A DNA stretch of 63,533 nt from a virus (Duplodnaviria > Caudoviricetes), in the IMG/VR virus record IMGVR_UViG_3300020430_000014, positions 1 to 63,533 of that record; one strand, 5' to 3'. This document shows positions 19,839 to 37,136 of this stretch, piece after piece. The notes below the pieces were generated by a model that did no database searches, was not told where the DNA came from, and saw only the letters and a list, made by a program, of their open reading frames with translations. A program made the translations under genes and the position numbers. The stretch's first letter is position 1. Each line of letters begins with the position of its first letter.

Positions 19839-20453
19839 ATGAAAAAGTTTTCGCAATTTATTGACGAAGCAAAGTCTCTTGCCTCAATTCAAGGTAAGAG
19901 ACTTGGTTTGGTGCCTGATGGGCATGGGTCTTTTCATGACAAAAAAACTGGTGAATTTATTGCGAAAAACGTTGGCGGTAAATTAAAGTTTTATAACCAA
20001 AACCAAGTTCTTGGTGCAACCGATCCACCACAAAAAAGAACTTCAAACAATCAAAGACCAGTAGCAGCACAAACTTCTAAAATTAAGAAGACAAAAAACA
20101 GTGTAACTACTGAAGTTCCCGAACAACTTACTCGCGAACAAGAGCAAGAACTTAGAGAAAAGTATATTGCTGGTGAGATTTTTTGTGAAGGATCTTTTGT
20201 CCATAACATCAAGACAGACCAGATTGGAAAGATTGTCCGTAGAGGTACAAATCATCTCATCTGTGTAACATCTGAAGATGATATGTTCAAGTCTTGGATT
20301 AGAGATGTTCGTGAATGGACTGAAGTATCGGGGGTTCCTGCCGATCAAAGGTTAGTCGGAACGGATGCTCATAGAGAGTATGCCATGATGATGACGGGCA
20401 CCAAGAAAATTAAGAATTTCATAAATAAATACAAGGCAAAAAAGAAGCACTAG
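19839..20453 (+). CDS. candidate head-internal protein resembling the termini of the cyanophage cytidyltransferase
   Basis: MKKFSQFIDEA N-terminus, GDGHG-like segment, GKIVRRGTNHLICVT...FKSWIRDV; no HxGH motif. Confidence 0.55.
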   Translation: MKKFSQFIDEAKSLASIQGKRLGLVPDGHGSFHDKKTGEFIAKNVGGKLKFYNQNQVLGATDPPQKRTSNNQRPVAAQTSKIKKTKNSVTTEVPEQLTREQEQELREKYIAGEIFCEGSFVHNIKTDQIGKIVRRGTNHLICVTSEDDMFKSWIRDVREWTEVSGVPADQRLVGTDAHREYAMMMTGTKKIKNFINKYKAKKKH

Positions 20454-20457
20454 AGTA

Positions 20458-21810
20458 ATGGCAAACCTTAAGCATGTTGTCTCTGATCTTCATCAGGTAT
20501 ATCTGGCGGAGATGGAAGCAAAGATTAAACCTCAGTTAGATAAGTCTTCTGCATCTTCCAGCGGATCAGATGGCGGTGAGAAGAAAGATAATTCTGCTGG
20601 TGGTGGCGGGGACAATGTTCAGAAGGCAGCAAGACAACTTGCCTATGACACCAGATATAAAGCAAGAAGAGAAGGTATTCCTCTAGAGAGAGCATTTACT
20701 CAATCTGTTCAAAACTCTAGCGCACCTGCTCCTGTTAAGGATGCGGCAAAGAGTCTTCTTTTTTCAGGCGAGAAGAAGGAGTCTGTTGAGATTGATGGAT
20801 CTATTGAAGAAGCAAGAAAGGGTGATAAAGAAAAGGTTCGTGTTACTCCTAAGAAAGGATATGGCGATACCAAAGGATATGTAAGATTTGCTGATGCTAA
20901 GAAGAAGCATGAACTGAGATCAAATCCCCAGATTCAGTCTGTAACTCCTACGGATCATGGCGATGCTTATGAGGGTGAAGGTGATAAAGGTAAGAAGGAC
21001 GATAAGAAAACGTCTGGCAAACTTGATCCTGTCGGCAAGGAAGACGGTGATGTCAACAACGACGGTAAGAAGGATAAGACCGATAAGTATCTGATGAAGC
21101 GCCGTAAGGCAATTGGTAAGGCAATCTCTAAGACCAAAAAAGAAGAGTTCTCTAACTGGAAGGCAGATCTTGGTATCGAAGAAGAGACCATGGTCGAAGT
21201 TGCTGGAGAAGAGAAGCCAAAAAAGATCACTGGTAAAGGTGTAAAGAACAAGATTGAGATTCATCCTGATCTCAAAGAAGGCATCGGTAAACTCGGTGGC
21301 GAAGTTCTTGAGGTTGAAGAAGTTGAAGTAGATGAGGTCTACAAGGGCAAGCACGGTCAGTCCGATAAAGAGTATGCTGCTTCTCGTTCTCAGGGCGGTA
21401 AAATGATCTCTGGCGATGACAAGAGATCTGGTGCTGAATACACCCATGGACGCAGAGTCAAGGCAGCAAACCCTGGTATGCAACCTGATGTGGGTGGCAA
21501 GACCAAACCCAAGTCCCAAGGTAAAATGGACAAGGGCACCAGGGCAGACCTGATGTATCGCAAGGCAAACCTCAAGAAGGAAGAGACTATTCATGAGGAG
21601 AAGCCTTATGAGAGACTTGATCGCTTGAATAAGGAGAGAATCGCTAAGCAGAAGGCAGCAAAAGATGCTGAGACTGCAAAGAGAGACAAGCGTATTTCTG
21701 ACTTCAAAAAGTTCAGAGAAGGTGAGCGTGCTGCGGGAACTCGTCATGATAAGATTCTTGACAAGTGGCAACAGAAAAAAATTGCTGCTGATAAAGCAAA
21801 AAAGCAGTAG
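20458..21810 (+). CDS. Lys/Glu-rich candidate virion-internal protein (short form)
   Basis: 450 aa; charged modules separated by xEE sites; DGDVNNDGKKD Ca-loop; ATAAATA upstream. Confidence 0.7.
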   Translation: MANLKHVVSDLHQVYLAEMEAKIKPQLDKSSASSSGSDGGEKKDNSAGGGGDNVQKAARQLAYDTRYKARREGIPLERAFTQSVQNSSAPAPVKDAAKSLLFSGEKKESVEIDGSIEEARKGDKEKVRVTPKKGYGDTKGYVRFADAKKKHELRSNPQIQSVTPTDHGDAYEGEGDKGKKDDKKTSGKLDPVGKEDGDVNNDGKKDKTDKYLMKRRKAIGKAISKTKKEEFSNWKADLGIEEETMVEVAGEEKPKKITGKGVKNKIEIHPDLKEGIGKLGGEVLEVEEVEVDEVYKGKHGQSDKEYAASRSQGGKMISGDDKRSGAEYTHGRRVKAANPGMQPDVGGKTKPKSQGKMDKGTRADLMYRKANLKKEETIHEEKPYERLDRLNKERIAKQKAAKDAETAKRDKRISDFKKFREGERAAGTRHDKILDKWQQKKIAADKAKKQ

Positions 21811-21840
21811 GCGAGGCAGCACAACCTAGTGCTTCCTCGC
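21798..21840 (+). other. programmed -1 ribosomal frameshift signal (candidate)
   Basis: In-frame A AAA AAG (21798-21804), 6-nt spacer, hairpin gcgagg-c-agcac/aaccta/gtgct-t-cctcgc (21811-21840); -1 frame open to 22310. Confidence 0.7.
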
Positions 21841-22310
21841 TCAGAGCAAAGCAGCAAGACACTGAGCGTCAGCAAATGCAGAATGCGAGAGCTGAGATGG
21901 AGAAATCCAGATCAGCTGCAGGTCAATCTAAGATCAAAGCAAGAAAAGATGCTGAAGATCTTAATGCCAGAATTCGTTCTGTTGCTAGTGAAGAGGCTGG
22001 TTTAGATGAGCGTACTCGTTACGCTAAAGAAACTGGTAAAGACTTCAAGACTGGTAATCCTTCTGAGAAGGGTGGAACCCGTGACGGCAAGAGTGCGTTT
22101 GATAAGGTCTCTCGTGAGATGAGAAAGACTGGTGGCATGATGTCTTCTAGAAAGAATGCCATTCAACCACAAGGTAAGAAGAAGGAAAAGGGTAAGAAGG
22201 GTTATCAAGGTGTAACACCTGTTGATAGAATCAAGAACAAACTTGCCCAAAAGAGAAAGCCTAAACCAGATCCATATGGATATGGTCAAGGTCGCTATCA
22301 GGGTGACTGA
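21804..22310 (+). CDS. -1 frame extension of the 20458 protein (track ORF 21876-22310)
   Basis: Frame open from the slippery site; same Lys-rich composition with ASEE/LDE sites. Confidence 0.65.
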   Translation, partial: AVGEAAQPSASSLRAKQQDTERQQMQNARAEMEKSRSAAGQSKIKARKDAEDLNARIRSVASEEAGLDERTRYAKETGKDFKTGNPSEKGGTRDGKSAFDKVSREMRKTGGMMSSRKNAIQPQGKKKEKGKKGYQGVTPVDRIKNKLAQKRKPKPDPYGYGQGRYQGD

Positions 22311-32657: not shown

Positions 32658-32731
<74 letters not shown>

Positions 32732-32733
32732 CT

Positions 32734-32806
32734 GGGGAATTAGCTCATTTGGTAGAGCGCCTGCTTTGCAAGCAGGAGGCGAGCGGTTCGATCCCGCTAT
32801 TCTCCA
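32734..32806 (+). tRNA. tRNA-Ala(UGC)
   Basis: Cloverleaf; G3:U70; cctgc-tttgcaa-gcagg. Confidence 0.95.
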
Positions 32807-32808
32807 TT

Positions 32809-33462
32809 ATGTACTACTTCCCAGATATTGATTCCATTTACTCAAGTCTTATGGGTGGATTTTTTACAAAGGATGAGATAAACCCTAATCTTAATTTACT
32901 CAATATCAACTACGAAAAATGTAGGGATGAGTATGAATCTGCTAGGCATCGACTAGTATTCAATGAGGGTAAAGAAGCATACCAAGATTGCAAGATTGCA
33001 ACACTGTTTGGTAGGTATCATCCTTCTATGGATCTTGCAGAACTCGAAAGGGTTTATGATCAGGGTGTTTATGTTGATCCAGAGCGGGAGATCTTCTACA
33101 CGCAGAATACAGTGTACGTGCCAACTCTGTTTAATCTCTGCTTAGAAGTGGGTATTCGCCAACGATGTTCAATTAATCTTCTGGAACCTGGTAAAGTAAT
33201 TGATTGGCATACTGACCTCGATCCTCAGGGAGACGATGACCTTATTATCAGAGGACTGTGGGGTCTCAGTGTCAACCCTCAAAATCAAGAAACCTGTCAA
33301 CTTCTAGTTGATAGTAAGGAAGGAGTTCAAAACCAAATATTGTCGAACAATAGTATGCACTTCTTCTGGGGAAGGACCAAGCATCATGTGTTCAATAATT
33401 TAACTACTCCTAGAGCATGCCTATCATTTGGTAATGTTGTTCCTCAGGAAAGAATACTCTAA
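32809..33462 (+). CDS. Asp/Asn beta-hydroxylase-like 2OG-Fe(II) oxygenase
   Basis: LEPGKVIDWHTD (HxD), HHVFN..TPR; start moved past the tRNA. Confidence 0.7.
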   Translation: MYYFPDIDSIYSSLMGGFFTKDEINPNLNLLNINYEKCRDEYESARHRLVFNEGKEAYQDCKIATLFGRYHPSMDLAELERVYDQGVYVDPEREIFYTQNTVYVPTLFNLCLEVGIRQRCSINLLEPGKVIDWHTDLDPQGDDDLIIRGLWGLSVNPQNQETCQLLVDSKEGVQNQILSNNSMHFFWGRTKHHVFNNLTTPRACLSFGNVVPQERIL

Positions 33463-33480
33463 ATAGTAAAAAAGTAAAAG

Positions 33481-33699
33481 GTGTATATGAGACAGTCACT
33501 AGTATTAGCGGCATGTTTAGCACCACTTGGATTAATTTTTATCATAATGAAGCTTGCTGTTTGGGTGTCTGCTGTAAAATCTGAATCTTCTTATGTCGGA
33601 AAAGAACCCTTTAGAAAACGAGGACCGTATGTGGCAGACGCATATGCAGACGTTGACGAGGAGGAAGAGGAGTATGGAGATCGCACAGATTATCGATAA
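33481..33699 (+). CDS. small membrane protein
   Basis: N-terminal TM, acidic tail. Confidence 0.55.
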   Translation: MYMRQSLVLAACLAPLGLIFIIMKLAVWVSAVKSESSYVGKEPFRKRGPYVADAYADVDEEEEEYGDRTDYR

Positions 33700-33820
33700 T
33701 GCTTTAGAAGAGTACTACTCAGAAAAGGGTCTTCCTGTCCCTAATTGGAAGTGTAAGAAGGATCCCGACTGGTGGATTGACTATCTAAAGGAATTGGGAA
33801 TTGACAAGGATAATCCCTAG
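33674..33820 (+). CDS. small hypothetical protein
   Basis: GAGGAG SD before ATG (MEIAQIID...). Confidence 0.55.
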   Translation: MEIAQIIDNALEEYYSEKGLPVPNWKCKKDPDWWIDYLKELGIDKDNP

Positions 33821-33829
33821 TGGTATAAT
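33801..33829 (+). promoter_or_regulatory. consensus sigma70 promoter
   Basis: TTGACA-17-TATAAT with extended -10 TG. Confidence 0.85.
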
Positions 33830-33835
33830 TTATCC

Positions 33836-34010
33836 AGAGAGGACTTGAGACGTTCCGACCAAAGGTGCCAAGCGGCGCGGATATACCGTTGCCCTGTAGT
33901 TTGGAATCAACCCCCTTTGGATGTTAGCGGTGGTACTGCTTCCTACTCCGTTACAAACTGTCAGTATTCTGGGTGTAGCGCCCACATAGCATACGGATAA
34001 GTGTAATGTT
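33836..34010 (+). ncRNA. structured ncRNA with pseudoknot, possibly manA RNA motif
   Basis: GC-enriched non-coding 175 nt between promoter and tRNA-Val; stems ccaaagg/cctttgg, tgggtg/cgccca, tccgt/acgga and crossing tagtttg/caaactg. Confidence 0.65.
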
Positions 34011-34012
34011 AC

Positions 34013-34084
34013 GCTTGATTAGCTCAGCGGTAGAGCATCTCGTTTACACCGAGGCGGTCGGCGGTTCGATCCCGTCATCAAGCA
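34013..34084 (+). tRNA. tRNA-Val(UAC)
   Basis: Cloverleaf; tctcg-tttacac-cgagg. Confidence 0.95.
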
Positions 34085-34101
34085 TTCTAAGTTACCAGGT
34101 T

Positions 34102-34347
34102 ATGTTAGTAAGATGTAAAGAGTGCAACAGAGAGTTGCATAGTACCAATAAAGTGCAGTGTTGTGGATGTCCAAACATGATGAAAGTCGTGGATGACACT
34201 GTAGGTGCTATGGACTTATCCCAAGTTGTTATTGTGGAGGGAGTTGCAGACAATAAAAAATCAGATACTCTCTCAAGAGAAGATAGAGCTTGGCAAGAGA
34301 ACCGACGCAAACGTAAGGTTCGTAGGTTAGATTTTGAAATTAAGTAA
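34102..34347 (+). CDS. small Zn-finger-like hypothetical protein
   Basis: CKEC...CCGC; start moved past the tRNA. Confidence 0.7.
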   Translation: MLVRCKECNRELHSTNKVQCCGCPNMMKVVDDTVGAMDLSQVVIVEGVADNKKSDTLSREDRAWQENRRKRKVRRLDFEIK

Positions 34348-34465
34348 TTAATTTAATAATTTTTACTGATTGTTGCCAAACTTAGTATAGAATTGAACAC
34401 ATAACTTGTTGACATAGTACAATTCCATATATAGAATTTATAAGTAAACGTAGCACTGTGCCTTT

Positions 34466-34717
34466 ATGGATCCATCTACTTCATATTCAGCATCTCTTGT
34501 TGGAGTTTATACACTCCTGGTTATCGTTCTGTTAATGATTGCCTATAGTGGAGTAGAGGGAACTCTGAGAGTATTTGCATATTTAGATTTAACTTTTAGA
34601 TATGCAATAATTAGATCTCGTATGTTCTTCATTGAACGTAAATTGAGGAAAAGATTACTCAAGGATACGGAAGTCTACACTAAACTCATCAAGGAGATTC
34701 AAGATGACCAACGATAG
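34466..34717 (+). CDS. membrane hypothetical protein
   Basis: TM segment; promoter TTGACA(34409)-17-TAGAAT. Confidence 0.6.
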   Translation: MDPSTSYSASLVGVYTLLVIVLLMIAYSGVEGTLRVFAYLDLTFRYAIIRSRMFFIERKLRKRLLKDTEVYTKLIKEIQDDQR

Positions 34718-34964
34718 GGAATTCTCCGACCTCAAACTTGAGAGGAAGGAATGTCCTAAATGTGGTGCAATTTGGATGAATGGTAATCACACCTGGGCAA
34801 CAGGTGCAAAAGGAAATGAAAGAGACCTTGCAGGATTGGTCTGTAACAAGTTAGGGGATAGTCGTTGTATAAATCCCCAAAGAGGATTTGAGGGTGGAGA
34901 TACTTGGGAAAAACGCTTAGACGATTTATCAAAAATGAGTGATGAGAAAGATGTCAATTTTTAA
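34704..34964 (+). CDS. Cys-rich hypothetical protein
   Basis: CPKCG...DLAGLVCN...CINP; AAGGAG SD. Confidence 0.7.
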   Translation: MTNDREFSDLKLERKECPKCGAIWMNGNHTWATGAKGNERDLAGLVCNKLGDSRCINPQRGFEGGDTWEKRLDDLSKMSDEKDVNF

Positions 34965-35166
34965 AAAACCACCACCGCCAGCACATCATCCTACCAAACA
35001 AGAAGTTCAGGAGATGATAGACGATGCAATACGCCAACATAATCGTAACGCTGGAATTATCAGTATGTTTGTTGGTTTTTTTGTTCTTGCACTTTTTAGT
35101 GAGGGTCTTCTTAGACTCATTGGAGTAGTACCTCCATTATTCCCCTGGCTCAAGATCACTTTATAG
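34951..35166 (+). CDS. small membrane protein
   Basis: DAIRQHNRNA plus TM. Confidence 0.6.
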   Translation: MSIFKKPPPPAHHPTKQEVQEMIDDAIRQHNRNAGIISMFVGFFVLALFSEGLLRLIGVVPPLFPWLKITL

Positions 35167-35181
35167 ACAAAAAAGTAGAAA

Positions 35182-35349
35182 ATGAATCCAAACGAGAAGA
35201 GAGAATTTTATAAAGGACTAAGAGAGCGTATCAATCAACTTAGAATGGGGCATTTGTTTGAAGAACCTTGCCCCTTGTATGAACCAGAATGGGAAGAGGA
35301 TCATGCGTGGGACTGTAGATTGACTTACGACCACGACGAAGAAGACTAA
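35182..35349 (+). CDS. small acidic hypothetical protein (55 aa, not in track)
   Basis: MNPNEKREFYKGLRERINQLRMGHLFEEPCPLYE... Confidence 0.55.
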   Translation: MNPNEKREFYKGLRERINQLRMGHLFEEPCPLYEPEWEEDHAWDCRLTYDHDEED

Positions 35350-35391
35350 ATAATTGACAAAATTAGGTTGATTCGATAGAATGTGCAATGT

Positions 35392-35465
35392 CGGGATGTA
35401 GCGCAGTTTGGTAGCGCATTCGCTTTGGGAGCGAAGGGCCGCAGGTTCAAATCCTGTCATCCCGA
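35392..35465 (+). tRNA. tRNA-Pro(UGG)
   Basis: Cloverleaf; ttcgc-tttggga-gcgaa; promoter TTGACA(35354)-17-TAGAAT. Confidence 0.95.
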
Positions 35466-35488
35466 TTCCATATAATTTTTTTAACAGC

Positions 35489-36121
35489 ATGTACGTAAGT
35501 AAATCTATAAATCAAACTGAAGAACCTGTTGTTCAAGGAACACATAGAATCGCTCAAAACCCTCTTGTTTACTATAGAGAAGTAATTCCTGAAAAAATTG
35601 TCAATGTGATGGCAGAAGAACTCACTGAAATGGAGGAGTTCGGTTCAACTAGATGGCATGACGCTGAAGTAGGTGGTGAAGCATCGGGTAGATTAGATAC
35701 TTCTGTCAGAAATTCAAAGTTGACCTGGTGGTATGAAGAACACTGGGCATGTAGTATTATCTCTCATTACATTGGTCTTGCTAATCGTAAGTATTGGGAA
35801 TATGACTTAAATGTTCTTGAAAGTATTCAAGTATCTTTGTATGGGAAGAGTGGTCACTATGGTTGGCACAGTGATTATGGAACTTCTGAAGATGGAAAGT
35901 TTACTAGAAAGTTAAGTGCTAGTGTGCTAATTACTGACCCTACAGAATACATGGGCGGTGACTTAGAATTTATTGATTATCATGGGAATGTTGTAAAGGC
36001 ACCCAAAGAAAAAGGATCTGTTATTGTTTTTGATTCTAGAATTCCTCATAGAGTTACTCCAGTAACACATGGAAAAAGAATCTCTCTCGTAACCTGGATG
36101 TACGGACCAAAATTAAGATGA
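35489..36121 (+). CDS. 2OG-Fe(II) oxygenase (prolyl hydroxylase / PKHD-type)
   Basis: YGWHSD, RKLS, YMGGDL, PHRVTPVTHGKRISLVTW. Confidence 0.88.
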   Translation: MYVSKSINQTEEPVVQGTHRIAQNPLVYYREVIPEKIVNVMAEELTEMEEFGSTRWHDAEVGGEASGRLDTSVRNSKLTWWYEEHWACSIISHYIGLANRKYWEYDLNVLESIQVSLYGKSGHYGWHSDYGTSEDGKFTRKLSASVLITDPTEYMGGDLEFIDYHGNVVKAPKEKGSVIVFDSRIPHRVTPVTHGKRISLVTWMYGPKLR

Positions 36122-36768
36122 GTATTACCAATCCTTGGCCAAGATTTACAAAGGAAGGATTTAAAAAAGAAAGGATCCCTGATGATCTTTACTTTGATAT
36201 GATGCTTGAATATAATAAGGCAAGATTTACGGACATACAACAAGATCCTTATTTTGAGCCACATTATGATCAGGTAGTTTCTGGTGGTGCAATAGCAATG
36301 CTGGACACTGATGAACCATTCTACCTAAGAGCAAATATTTCGGATCAAGCATTTGATCGTTGGGCAAAAAAACTTCAACCTCTTATGGAAAAGTGGTGTG
36401 GAGAAAAACTTAATTTTATTCAAGGGTATGGGATAAGATCTTATCACAAAGATTCAATGCTATGTGTACATAGAGATGAGATATCAACACATATTATTAG
36501 TCTCATTGTTCATGTGGATGAACATCCAGAAGTAAAGTGGCCTTTAGAGTTCATCGATCATGATGGAAAACTTCATAAAGTTACTTTTGATAAAGGAGAC
36601 ATGTTAATGTATGAAAGTCTCTGTGTTCATGCAAGAGAGACTCCATTTACTGGTGAGTATTATAGAAATATGTACTTCCATTGGTGCCCAGTAGACTGGG
36701 ATCCAACTCCATATCAAAACAACTGGGTAAGGTATCGTAGTATTCAGGAGGCATTAAATGAAGATTGA
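36118..36768 (+). CDS. 2OG-Fe(II) oxygenase
   Basis: GIRSY..VHRD, WPL, YES..VHAR. Confidence 0.75.
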   Translation: MSITNPWPRFTKEGFKKERIPDDLYFDMMLEYNKARFTDIQQDPYFEPHYDQVVSGGAIAMLDTDEPFYLRANISDQAFDRWAKKLQPLMEKWCGEKLNFIQGYGIRSYHKDSMLCVHRDEISTHIISLIVHVDEHPEVKWPLEFIDHDGKLHKVTFDKGDMLMYESLCVHARETPFTGEYYRNMYFHWCPVDWDPTPYQNNWVRYRSIQEALNED

Positions 36769-36934
36769 AATGTTTACTGTGAAAGAGTGGCAAGATAATT
36801 GGGAAACTCTTTTTGAAAGAGTGGAGAACGGGGAGACTATAGGTGTTGTCGCTGAGGACGGTCAGACAGCTGTCATGACCCCAGCGGATGATGAACTCAT
36901 ACGCATGTATACTGAACACAATGAGGCACCTTAA
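36758..36934 (+). CDS. Phd/YefM antitoxin-like small protein (58 aa, not in track)
   Basis: AGGAGG SD; FTVKEWQDNWETLFERVENGETIGV..DGQTAVMTP. Confidence 0.55.
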   Translation: MKIEMFTVKEWQDNWETLFERVENGETIGVVAEDGQTAVMTPADDELIRMYTEHNEAP

Positions 36935-37009
36935 GGGACTGTCGCATATTGGTTAATGCGCTCTGCTTATAACGGAGTCAATCGGGTTCAATTCCCGACA
37001 GTCCTACCA
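36935..37009 (+). tRNA. tRNA-Ile(UAU)
   Basis: Cloverleaf; ctctg-cttataa-cggag; encoded CCA. Confidence 0.88.
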
Positions 37010-37082
37010 GGGGGATTAGCAATCTGGTGAATGCAGCGAACTCATAATTCGCCTAAGGCGAGTTCGATCCTCGCATCCCCCA
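37010..37082 (+). tRNA. tRNA with CAU anticodon (elongator Met, or Ile2 if lysidinylated)
   Basis: Cloverleaf; gcgaa-ctcataa-ttcgc; paired 1:72, so not an initiator. Confidence 0.88.
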
Positions 37083-37136
37083 CTTGACGTTTTTACGTCA
37101 TCCTTGTAAAATACTATTGTCAACACTCACAGGACA

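Follow-up and report, generated by a model that had tools for sequence, protein, structure and literature searches.

In the 63,533-nt stretch of DNA analysed here, from a marine T4-like cyanophage (Duplodnaviria; Caudoviricetes; IMG/VR record IMGVR_UViG_3300020430_000014; the whole stretch is hereafter called the window), a gene that ends at an in-phase slippery heptamer, ORF1, is followed in the -1 frame by a second open reading frame (ORF), ORF2. We consider it very likely that the two are joined by a programmed -1 ribosomal frameshift of the dnaX type, which would give a short ORF1 product and a long ORF1-ORF2 product. The sequence and its comparison with relatives show the signal itself and its recurrence among homologs, the coding character of the -1 frame, and the match in order with homologs that consist of a single ORF. 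A preliminary description, made from the window alone, had proposed such a frameshift with a short and a long product. This proposal is now strongly supported by the conservation of the heptamer, by stems that differ between relatives and covary, by variation that is synonymous in the -1 frame only, by the existence of fused homologs, and by the occurrence of the same run of six adenines (A6) in independent assemblies.

The 3' end of ORF1 reads GCA AAA AAG CAG TAG, which sets the heptamer in phase (Table 1). The hairpin that follows is made of a 5' arm (21811-21822), a loop (21823-21828) and a 3' arm (21829-21840), its 6 and 5 bp being separated by a 1x1 C/U mismatch; RNAfold adds a closing pair between G21810 and U21841, so that the spacer amounts to 5-6 nt. 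The 41-nt segment holding this hairpin folds at -20.6 kcal/mol (z = -5.14), with none of 200 dinucleotide shuffles as stable, while the wider 81-nt segment is less marked (z = -2.38; 4/200 shuffles equally stable). AAAAAAG occurs at 29 sites on both strands of the window, and the one at 21798 has the most stable 48 nt downstream (-20.6; runner-up -13.0); only 0.17% of 3000 random 48-nt segments fold as stably. From 21795 on, the -1 frame stays open for 171 codons, up to the stop codon at 22308-22310, and the transframe product has 617 aa. The ATG at 21876 is preceded by gagcgtcagcaa, which holds no GGAG-like motif, and a scan of this region of the window detected no promoter-like site between ORF1 and ORF2. 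These results bear out four readings of the preliminary description, namely an in-phase A-AAA-AAG at the end of a 450-aa ORF, an 11-bp hairpin 6 nt after it, a -1 frame open to 22310 that gives 617 aa, and an ATG at 21876 without a good Shine-Dalgarno (SD) sequence. A terminator was also considered as a reading of the hairpin and rejected, since the hairpin lacks a downstream U-tract and was not flagged by the scan.

ORF1 contains a second in-phase AAAAAAG, at 21219-21225. No stable fold follows it (-7.2, the control median), the -1 frame meets a stop after 5 codons, and the site is probably just a Lys-Lys codon pair.

Table 1. Features of the ORF1-ORF2 locus and of its candidate recoding signal (positions of the window)
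Feature	Coordinates	Strand	Details
ORF1 (0 frame), predicted short product without shift	20458..21810	+	450 aa, 49.9 kDa, pI 9.5, 17% Lys
Slippery heptamer A_AAA_AAG	21798..21804	+	X_XXY_YYZ phase with ORF1
Spacer CAGTAG	21805..21810	+	5-6 nt; includes the 0-frame stop TAG (21808-21810)
Putative stimulatory hairpin	21811..21840	+	6 bp, C/U mismatch, 5 bp, 6-nt loop; -20.6 kcal/mol
-1-frame coding stretch from slip site to first ATG	21804..21875	+	Would be read only after a shift
ORF2 as an ORF finder would call it	21876..22310	+	144 aa, pI 10.2, 16% Lys, 9.7% Arg
Conserved C-terminal domain of the family, starting ERTRYAKETGKD	22008..22310	+	Predicted in the long isoform only; 18-sequence alignment

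ORF1 and ORF2 might be two independent genes, with ORF2 starting at ATG 21876 and with the heptamer and hairpin being incidental to the end of a lysine-rich gene, and the missing SD sequence would by itself say little, as cyanophage genes often lack strong SD sequences. We regard this as very improbable, because of the stretch that precedes the ATG among other things. Six sequences sharing the junction of the window (window type, see below) were compared over the 78 nt from the heptamer to ATG 21876. Eight columns vary between these two points; all eight are synonymous in the -1 frame, and none is in either of the other two frames. The ATG is itself not conserved in window-type relatives, the first ATG in that frame being codon 32 in locus L007, codon 61 in L064 and codon 103 in L210, yet their -1 frame is open from the heptamer on. 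Since the ATG is not conserved and 8/8 sites are synonymous in the -1 frame only, independent initiation of ORF2 in the window lineage is strongly argued against. The absence of both an SD sequence and a promoter-like site ahead of ATG 21876 points the same way.

The heptamer recurs in relatives. A search of viral contigs with ORF2 gave 57 loci, which were classified by script into (i) ten split loci (L003-L007, L012-L014, L040 and L045), where a long upstream frame (348-483 codons; that of L014 is cut by the contig end) is followed by the ORF2 frame in -1, (ii) 26 fused loci, where a single ORF of at least 460 codons includes the C-terminal domain, and (iii) 21 others, consisting of contig-end cuts, shorter or more distant relatives and special cases. 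An in-phase AAAAAAG is present in the short overlap of all ten split loci. It also occurs without a stem beside a 21-codon ORF in L049, and at the end of the upstream gene in L046, which was counted as fused. The metagenome scan gave 18 loci, some of which may duplicate IMG/VR contigs (L071 resembles L033); six of them, L064-L067, L072 and L073, show the split together with the heptamer (L065 and L072 with a cut upstream frame), five are fused and seven fall under other arrangements. Three more split loci with the heptamer (L210, L212 and L214) came from a motif scan that is biased, the lower stem having been required; a search with the C-terminal module of ORF1 gave five loci, four of them already known. 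A further motif scan of viral contigs, for CAAAAAAG-N6-GCGAGG, was discarded: 79 of the 80 loci fetched were unrelated and lacked the 3' arm, and the remaining one was a contig already in the set.

Two isolates, S-BM3 and SynMITS9220M01, are split in the same way with the heptamer. GenBank annotates two coding sequences in each, which counts for independent genes. The window-type junction gave no match when window positions 21640-21960 were compared by blastn with the phage collection, and is thus known only from this contig and from metagenomic contigs. In all, an in-phase AAAAAAG stands at every -1 split junction that was found, and each junction context has a stem downstream, as the preliminary description had proposed to check in homologs; the presence of the heptamer at all split junctions counts against two independent genes.

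The junctions form at least three contexts, which cannot be aligned with one another at the DNA or protein level, and in each of them the stem starts 5-7 nt after the heptamer: (i) in the window type (window, L003-6, L007, L064, L072 and L210-214), GCGAGG...CCTCGC comes after the spacer and the upper stems vary, (ii) in the S-BM3 type (L001, L040 and L045), a stop codon TAG comes directly after the heptamer, followed by GGAGGG...CCCTCC enclosing a 9-bp inner hairpin, and (iii) in the SynMITS9220M01 type (L012-14, L060, L065-67 and L073), the spacer ACTCAA is followed by a 10-bp stem enclosing a small hairpin. Measured against shuffles, the junction segments have z scores of -2.9 to -7.5, and for 11 of 12 segments none of 200 shuffles was as stable.

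The stems were aligned with a covariance model, in which the fit to a structure favours pairing; the individual RNAfold folds agree. The model also drew in reverse-strand matches and misaligned L063, and pairs were counted by script in the 12 forward rows, five reverse-strand rows and L063 (different stem geometry) having been dropped. A MAFFT alignment of the hairpin had been set aside, its 3' arms being misaligned. The window type has five distinct stem variants, in which the 6 lower pairs never change; the upper 5 pairs are standard in 24 of 25 cells, and both sides have changed in 4 of these 5 upper pairs (e.g. C-G/U-A, A-U/G-C, C-G/G-C).

The link between heptamer and structure was assessed through the minimum free energy of the 48 nt downstream of each class of site, compared with in-gene controls by the Mann-Whitney test. 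Control positions in phase in the same genes (n = 4209) have a mean of -7.66 kcal/mol (standard deviation 3.46; 1st percentile -16.6). The mean drops to -19.4 kcal/mol (P = 3.9e-10) for junction heptamers in distinct contexts (n = 13, amounting to some 3-5 independent observations because loci within a junction type are related), while it stays at -8.6 kcal/mol for internal in-phase AAAAAAG (n = 24; P = 0.14) and at -7.9 kcal/mol for out-of-phase AAAAAAG (n = 57; P = 0.34). The heptamer alone is common, and strong structure accompanies it only at frame junctions. The in-phase AAAAAAG found elsewhere in these genes speaks for two independent genes, and the restriction of strong stems to junction heptamers speaks against them.

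Upstream of the heptamer, GGAG is found at a distance of 8 nt in the S-BM3 type (AAGGAG; L001:3540-3545) and of 11 nt in the SynMITS9220M01 type (CAGGAG; L012:2561-2566). Comparison of L001 and L012 with L061 and L219 showed that non-shifting homologs keep the amino acids without the GGAG, CAG GAG being replaced by CAA GAG in P-TIM68 and GAG AAG GAG by GAG AAA GAG in S-H35. This suggests that GGAG acts as a dnaX-like upstream stimulator in these two types. P-TIM68 has a 1007-aa ORF that runs through the equivalent of the SynMITS9220M01-type junction; its lysine pair is coded AAG AAA, and the conserved D-A-P-Q codons appear as synonymous variants that abolish the stem.

One fused relative is an exception to this loss of the signal. 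L063, a close relative on a metagenome contig with an ORF2 region 77% identical to that of the window, has both halves in one ORF of 529 codons. Within this ORF, the module that ends in ...DKWQQKKIAA comes first and the block AKQQDTER... second; in the window these two flank the junction on opposite sides. Such collinearity across the junction argues against two independent genes. L063 (2422-2471) nevertheless retains both heptamer and stem: GCA AAA AAG is in phase, and after a spacer of 6 nt comes a 13-bp hairpin with a sequence unlike that of the window (-18.5 kcal/mol; z = -2.9; 1/200 shuffles as stable; among the top 0.4% of the in-gene controls). From the heptamer to the next conserved block, the distance is 2 nt less than in the window. 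Because a stop codon ends the -1 frame of L063 after about 5 codons, a shift would here truncate the protein, which is the polarity of dnaX. A scan for further L063-type junctions gave one unrelated match only, so that the polarity flip is a case of a single metagenome contig.

Taking the split loci and L063 together, it may be, although we think it somewhat less than probable, that the family to which the gene belongs (gp186 of cyanomyoviruses, see below) has repeatedly evolved, or kept amid divergence, full dnaX-like cassettes (GGAG, A_AAA_AAG and stem) ahead of the C-terminal domain. These would be used in both polarities, the domain being added in the window and about 20 relatives and removed in L063, and selection would act on both isoforms in a set ratio, as for dnaX tau/gamma, a ratio that a small indel such as the 2 nt of L063 could invert.

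An internal in-phase AAAAAAG with a stem and an early -1 stop was also seen in the fused loci L015, L036-39, L025, L032 and L035. We do not claim these as dnaX-like truncation sites, as their folds lie in the 6-19% tail of controls and internal heptamers are not enriched in structure. In L025 (2598), L032 (2058) and L035 (1761), the heptamer stands at codon 86, with a 7-bp hairpin 8 nt further on and a -1 stop after 4 codons; in one pair of the hairpin, both bases differ in a compensatory manner (GTCTGAG/CTCAGAC versus GTCCGAG/CTCGGAC), each of the two substitutions being synonymous, and the folds are in the 7-19% control tail. L015 (1886) and L036-39 resemble this arrangement.

The two frames might also be joined in RNA, with RNA polymerase slipping on A6 and some mRNAs with an extra A (or minus two) encoding the fusion. 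The site is indeed a homopolymer, and in L018 and L019 the same family is split elsewhere at a run of A12, where transcriptional slippage is plausible. However, every type of junction considered here has a run of exactly six adenines and then a G, and efficient transcriptional slippage usually takes longer runs. In addition, a stem 5-7 nt downstream and, in two junction types, GGAG 8-11 nt upstream are elements that stimulate slippage of the ribosome and not of the polymerase. We therefore hold polymerase slippage to be a highly unlikely explanation. As for the A12 split (L018:1396-1412 and L019:1405-1421), the upstream frame has 210 codons, the -1 frame has 628 codons with the rest of the protein, and no strong stem comes after the run (-11.2); transcriptional or ribosomal slippage, or a homopolymer assembly error, could account for it.

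Homopolymer runs are error-prone and single-ORF relatives exist, so that the split could in principle stem from an error of sequencing or assembly, or from recent inactivation by mutation (a pseudogene or DNA-level phase variation), in what is truly a single ORF. Eighteen DNA runs, spanning 8 studies, contain at least half of the sampled words of the stretch. Contigs were compared across the site for runs X3, X10, X15 and X18, which belong to four studies and of which X3 is a possible source of the window DNA. The coverage was 21500-22100 for X3 and X10, 21576-22100 for X15, and 21576-22054 for X18. All these contigs cross A6 with 0 gaps, and no insertion or deletion is listed; contigs drop rare variants, and minority alleles of the run may exist. 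Because contigs of four studies cross the site without a gap, the A6 run is real, which bears on the concern about its length expressed in the preliminary description. Moreover, the arrangement recurs in diverged relatives with an intact ORF2, and the difference from the fused L063 (the 2 nt mentioned above) is located outside the A run. An error or a pseudogene is accordingly extremely unlikely. The RNA runs listed contain next to none of the stretch.

The contigs of X15 and X18 match the window only from 21576 to about 22054-22100, and diverge from it at 21576 and at 22003-22007, the latter point being the start of the conserved C-terminal domain (22008). With such breakpoints, the linker of about 430 nt in which the frameshift signal is located behaves as an exchangeable unit placed between modules that are conserved.

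In the ribosomal frameshift that we favour, ribosomes translating ORF1 would reach A_AAA_AAG while the hairpin sits at the mRNA entrance and resists unwinding. A fraction of them would slip back by one base, the two tRNA-Lys re-pairing from AAA-AAG to AAA-AAA, and would read on in the -1 frame to 22310, yielding the 617-aa long form as the sole carrier of the conserved basic C-terminal domain. Ribosomes that do not slip would terminate two codons further on at TAG and release the short form. That it is the ribosome that slips, how efficiently it does so, and that both isoforms are used are what we infer from the signal and its comparison.

Several points weigh against this reading. An upstream SD-like stimulator was found neither in the window nor in the window-type relatives; such an element is auxiliary, and not obligatory, for -1 frameshifting. 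The window carries six plus-strand tRNA genes at 32658-37083 (Arg-TCT, Ala-TGC, Val-TAC, Pro-TGG, Ile-TAT and Met-CAT) and none for tRNA-Lys. The slipperiness of AAG depends on the tRNA-Lys set of the host. In-phase AAAAAAG is not rare in these lysine-rich genes (the 24 internal sites and the one at 21219 in ORF1), the independent observations of stems at junctions are few, and the efficiency of the shift could be low. In the SynMITS9220M01 type, an ATG is present 4 codons after the heptamer, and independent initiation of ORF2 is possible there. Finally, the C-terminal-domain protein is encoded by a separate gene with its own start in S-P4, where it directly follows the upstream gene, and in ACG-2014d; this favours independent genes, and it indicates that the unfused arrangement is viable and that fusion is not obligatory for the family.

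Matches of the region are confined to cyanomyoviruses (Kyanoviridae), with 225 records (199 Synechococcus phages, 18 "Cyanophage", 6 Prochlorococcus phages and 2 "Marine"), none of which covers at least 80% of the query. ORF1 matches phrog_1418 (E = 7.6e-24), phrog_3326 and phrog_4359, and ORF2 matches positions 551-681 of the 687 of phrog_11470 (E = 2.6e-34), that is, the C-terminus of a long protein. The family is labelled in databases as gp186, after S-SM2 (T4-GC_1222), and on these sequence matches ORF1 is a modular lysine-rich protein of the S-SM2 gp186/T4-GC_1222 family. The conserved part of the family corresponds to the C-terminal 100 or so residues from ERTRYAKETGKD, with 32 invariant columns among the 18 sequences. 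An AlphaFold2 model of ORF2 built on this alignment is of low confidence (predicted local distance difference test, 66.7; predicted template modelling score, 0.24) and consists of a long helix followed by short helices. Pfam returned no family above the cut-off for ORF1 and ORF2, the PHROG matches carry no function, a PDB sequence search gave no match for the ORF1/ORF2 protein, and in the ESM Atlas the only matches were unnamed viral clusters, all of them below 0.9.

The window shares a gene order with S-BM3, SynMITS9220M01 and S-SCSM1, which runs from a cytidylyltransferase-like gene through this gene, a small gp187-like gene, a virion structural gene and a gp189-like gene on towards primase; its neighbours are the cytidylyltransferase-like gene and genes of phrog_402, phrog_3086 and phrog_407. 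These are not tail tube or tape measure genes and no chaperone family was matched, so the locus does lie outside the tail-chaperone context, as first described. In S-SCSM1, the homolog gp92 (SSCSM1_92) is a fused, single ORF of 520 aa that shares two ORF1 modules and the ORF2 domain, including the same C-terminal tail, and it is labelled "virion protein". According to the S-SCSM1 report (PMC9602691), 45 phage proteins, including the neighbouring NMNAT/cytidylyltransferase, were identified by mass spectrometry of CsCl-purified virions. For the S-P4 homolog, the annotation as structural protein has been transferred from T4-GC 1454. Going by the label of the S-SCSM1 homolog, the window protein is possibly virion-associated, this label pointing to the virion and not specifically to the head interior. 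The term "internal protein" may also apply to the ORF1/ORF2 product, whose basic, low-complexity composition is compatible with an internal head protein like IPI-III of T4 and not diagnostic.

Three further observations were made at or next to ORF1. The match of the 204-aa upstream ORF (19839-20453) to the "cytidyltransferase" family phrog_395 is restricted to the C-terminal portion of the profile (positions 212-304 of 373). This ORF is similar to the S-BM3 cytidylyltransferase gene in its N-terminal and C-terminal segments, and the enzyme core is apparently missing. Residues 193-226 of ORF1 (21034-21135) contain a weak dockerin-like/EF-hand-like calcium-binding loop motif, DGDVNNDGKKD (Pfam Dockerin_1, E = 0.017, below the cut-off; PDB 4fl4, E = 0.12), and this module is kept in the S-BM3 and S-SCSM1 homologs. 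On the opposite strand, an ORF of 300 aa (20920-21822, minus strand) covers most of ORF1; it is rich in Leu and Phe, as expected for the reverse complement of a Lys/Glu-rich gene, and is probably not a gene.

Few viruses of the ocean are as abundant as T4-like cyanophages, and the gene sits in their poorly understood hypervariable region of virion-associated proteins. We found no description of this frameshift in the literature searched, as judged by titles and the beginnings of abstracts and with most subscription journals outside the scope, and provisionally we regard it as a textbook signal in a gene family and a virus group where no published description was found. If the frameshift is true, the annotation of two hypothetical proteins in S-BM3 and SynMITS9220M01 misses the long product, and gene finders and family databases will systematically split such genes. 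The phage would also set the ratio of forms with and without the conserved basic C-terminal domain, which offers a handle on the function of this virion protein family. For the evolution of recoding, the relatives provide a natural series of differing stems, of GGAG present or absent, and of fused and split forms, in picocyanobacterial hosts whose frameshifting has been little studied, and L063 hints, as one relative, that the same signal may work with opposite polarity.

Among known systems, the tail-assembly-chaperone genes G/GT share with the window a conserved -1 frameshift in a gene of the morphogenesis region of tailed phages, with short and long forms. In the accessible part of one report on T4-like phages (PMC12846349), -1 frameshifting is mentioned only for such genes (TAC-N). 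The window gene differs from them in lying near the cytidylyltransferase-like, gp187- and gp189-like genes and the primase region, and not near tail tube or tape measure genes, and in giving no chaperone match. The preliminary description had likened the signal to those of dnaX and of the IS3 family. In IS3-family elements such as IS911, the orfAB frameshift takes place at A_AAA_AAG ahead of a structured region, and it is the transframe fusion that has full function. The window has the same heptamer, also with a downstream structure, but it is not a mobile element, and the Pfam search found no transposase domains.

The closer likeness is to E. coli dnaX, where A_AAA_AAG, a stable stem-loop about 6 nt downstream and an SD-like upstream stimulator give two isoforms, tau and gamma, from one mRNA. 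The placement of heptamer and stem in the window matches the dnaX type, as the heptamer is identical, the stem-loop has a similar spacing, and two isoforms are predicted from one mRNA. The S-BM3 and SynMITS9220M01 types add GGAG 8-11 nt upstream, like the dnaX stimulator, and L063 shares the dnaX polarity, its 0 frame giving the long form and its -1 frame stopping after about 5 codons. The window differs in that the upstream SD-like element is missing and in that the shift would extend the protein, where that of dnaX truncates it; in addition, its gene would encode a phage virion-associated protein and not a polymerase subunit, and has no sequence homology to dnaX. C-terminal extensions made by frameshifting are known from T7 gene 10A/10B and from capsid or tail proteins of Listeria and Bacillus phages. 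As in T7 10A/10B, some of the molecules would gain a C-terminal extension through a -1 shift close to the end of an ORF for a phage virion protein, here a putative one. The place of the window protein in the virion is known only via the label of its S-SCSM1 homolog, its family and slippery sequence are different, and its extension, of 167 aa, carries the most conserved domain of the family.

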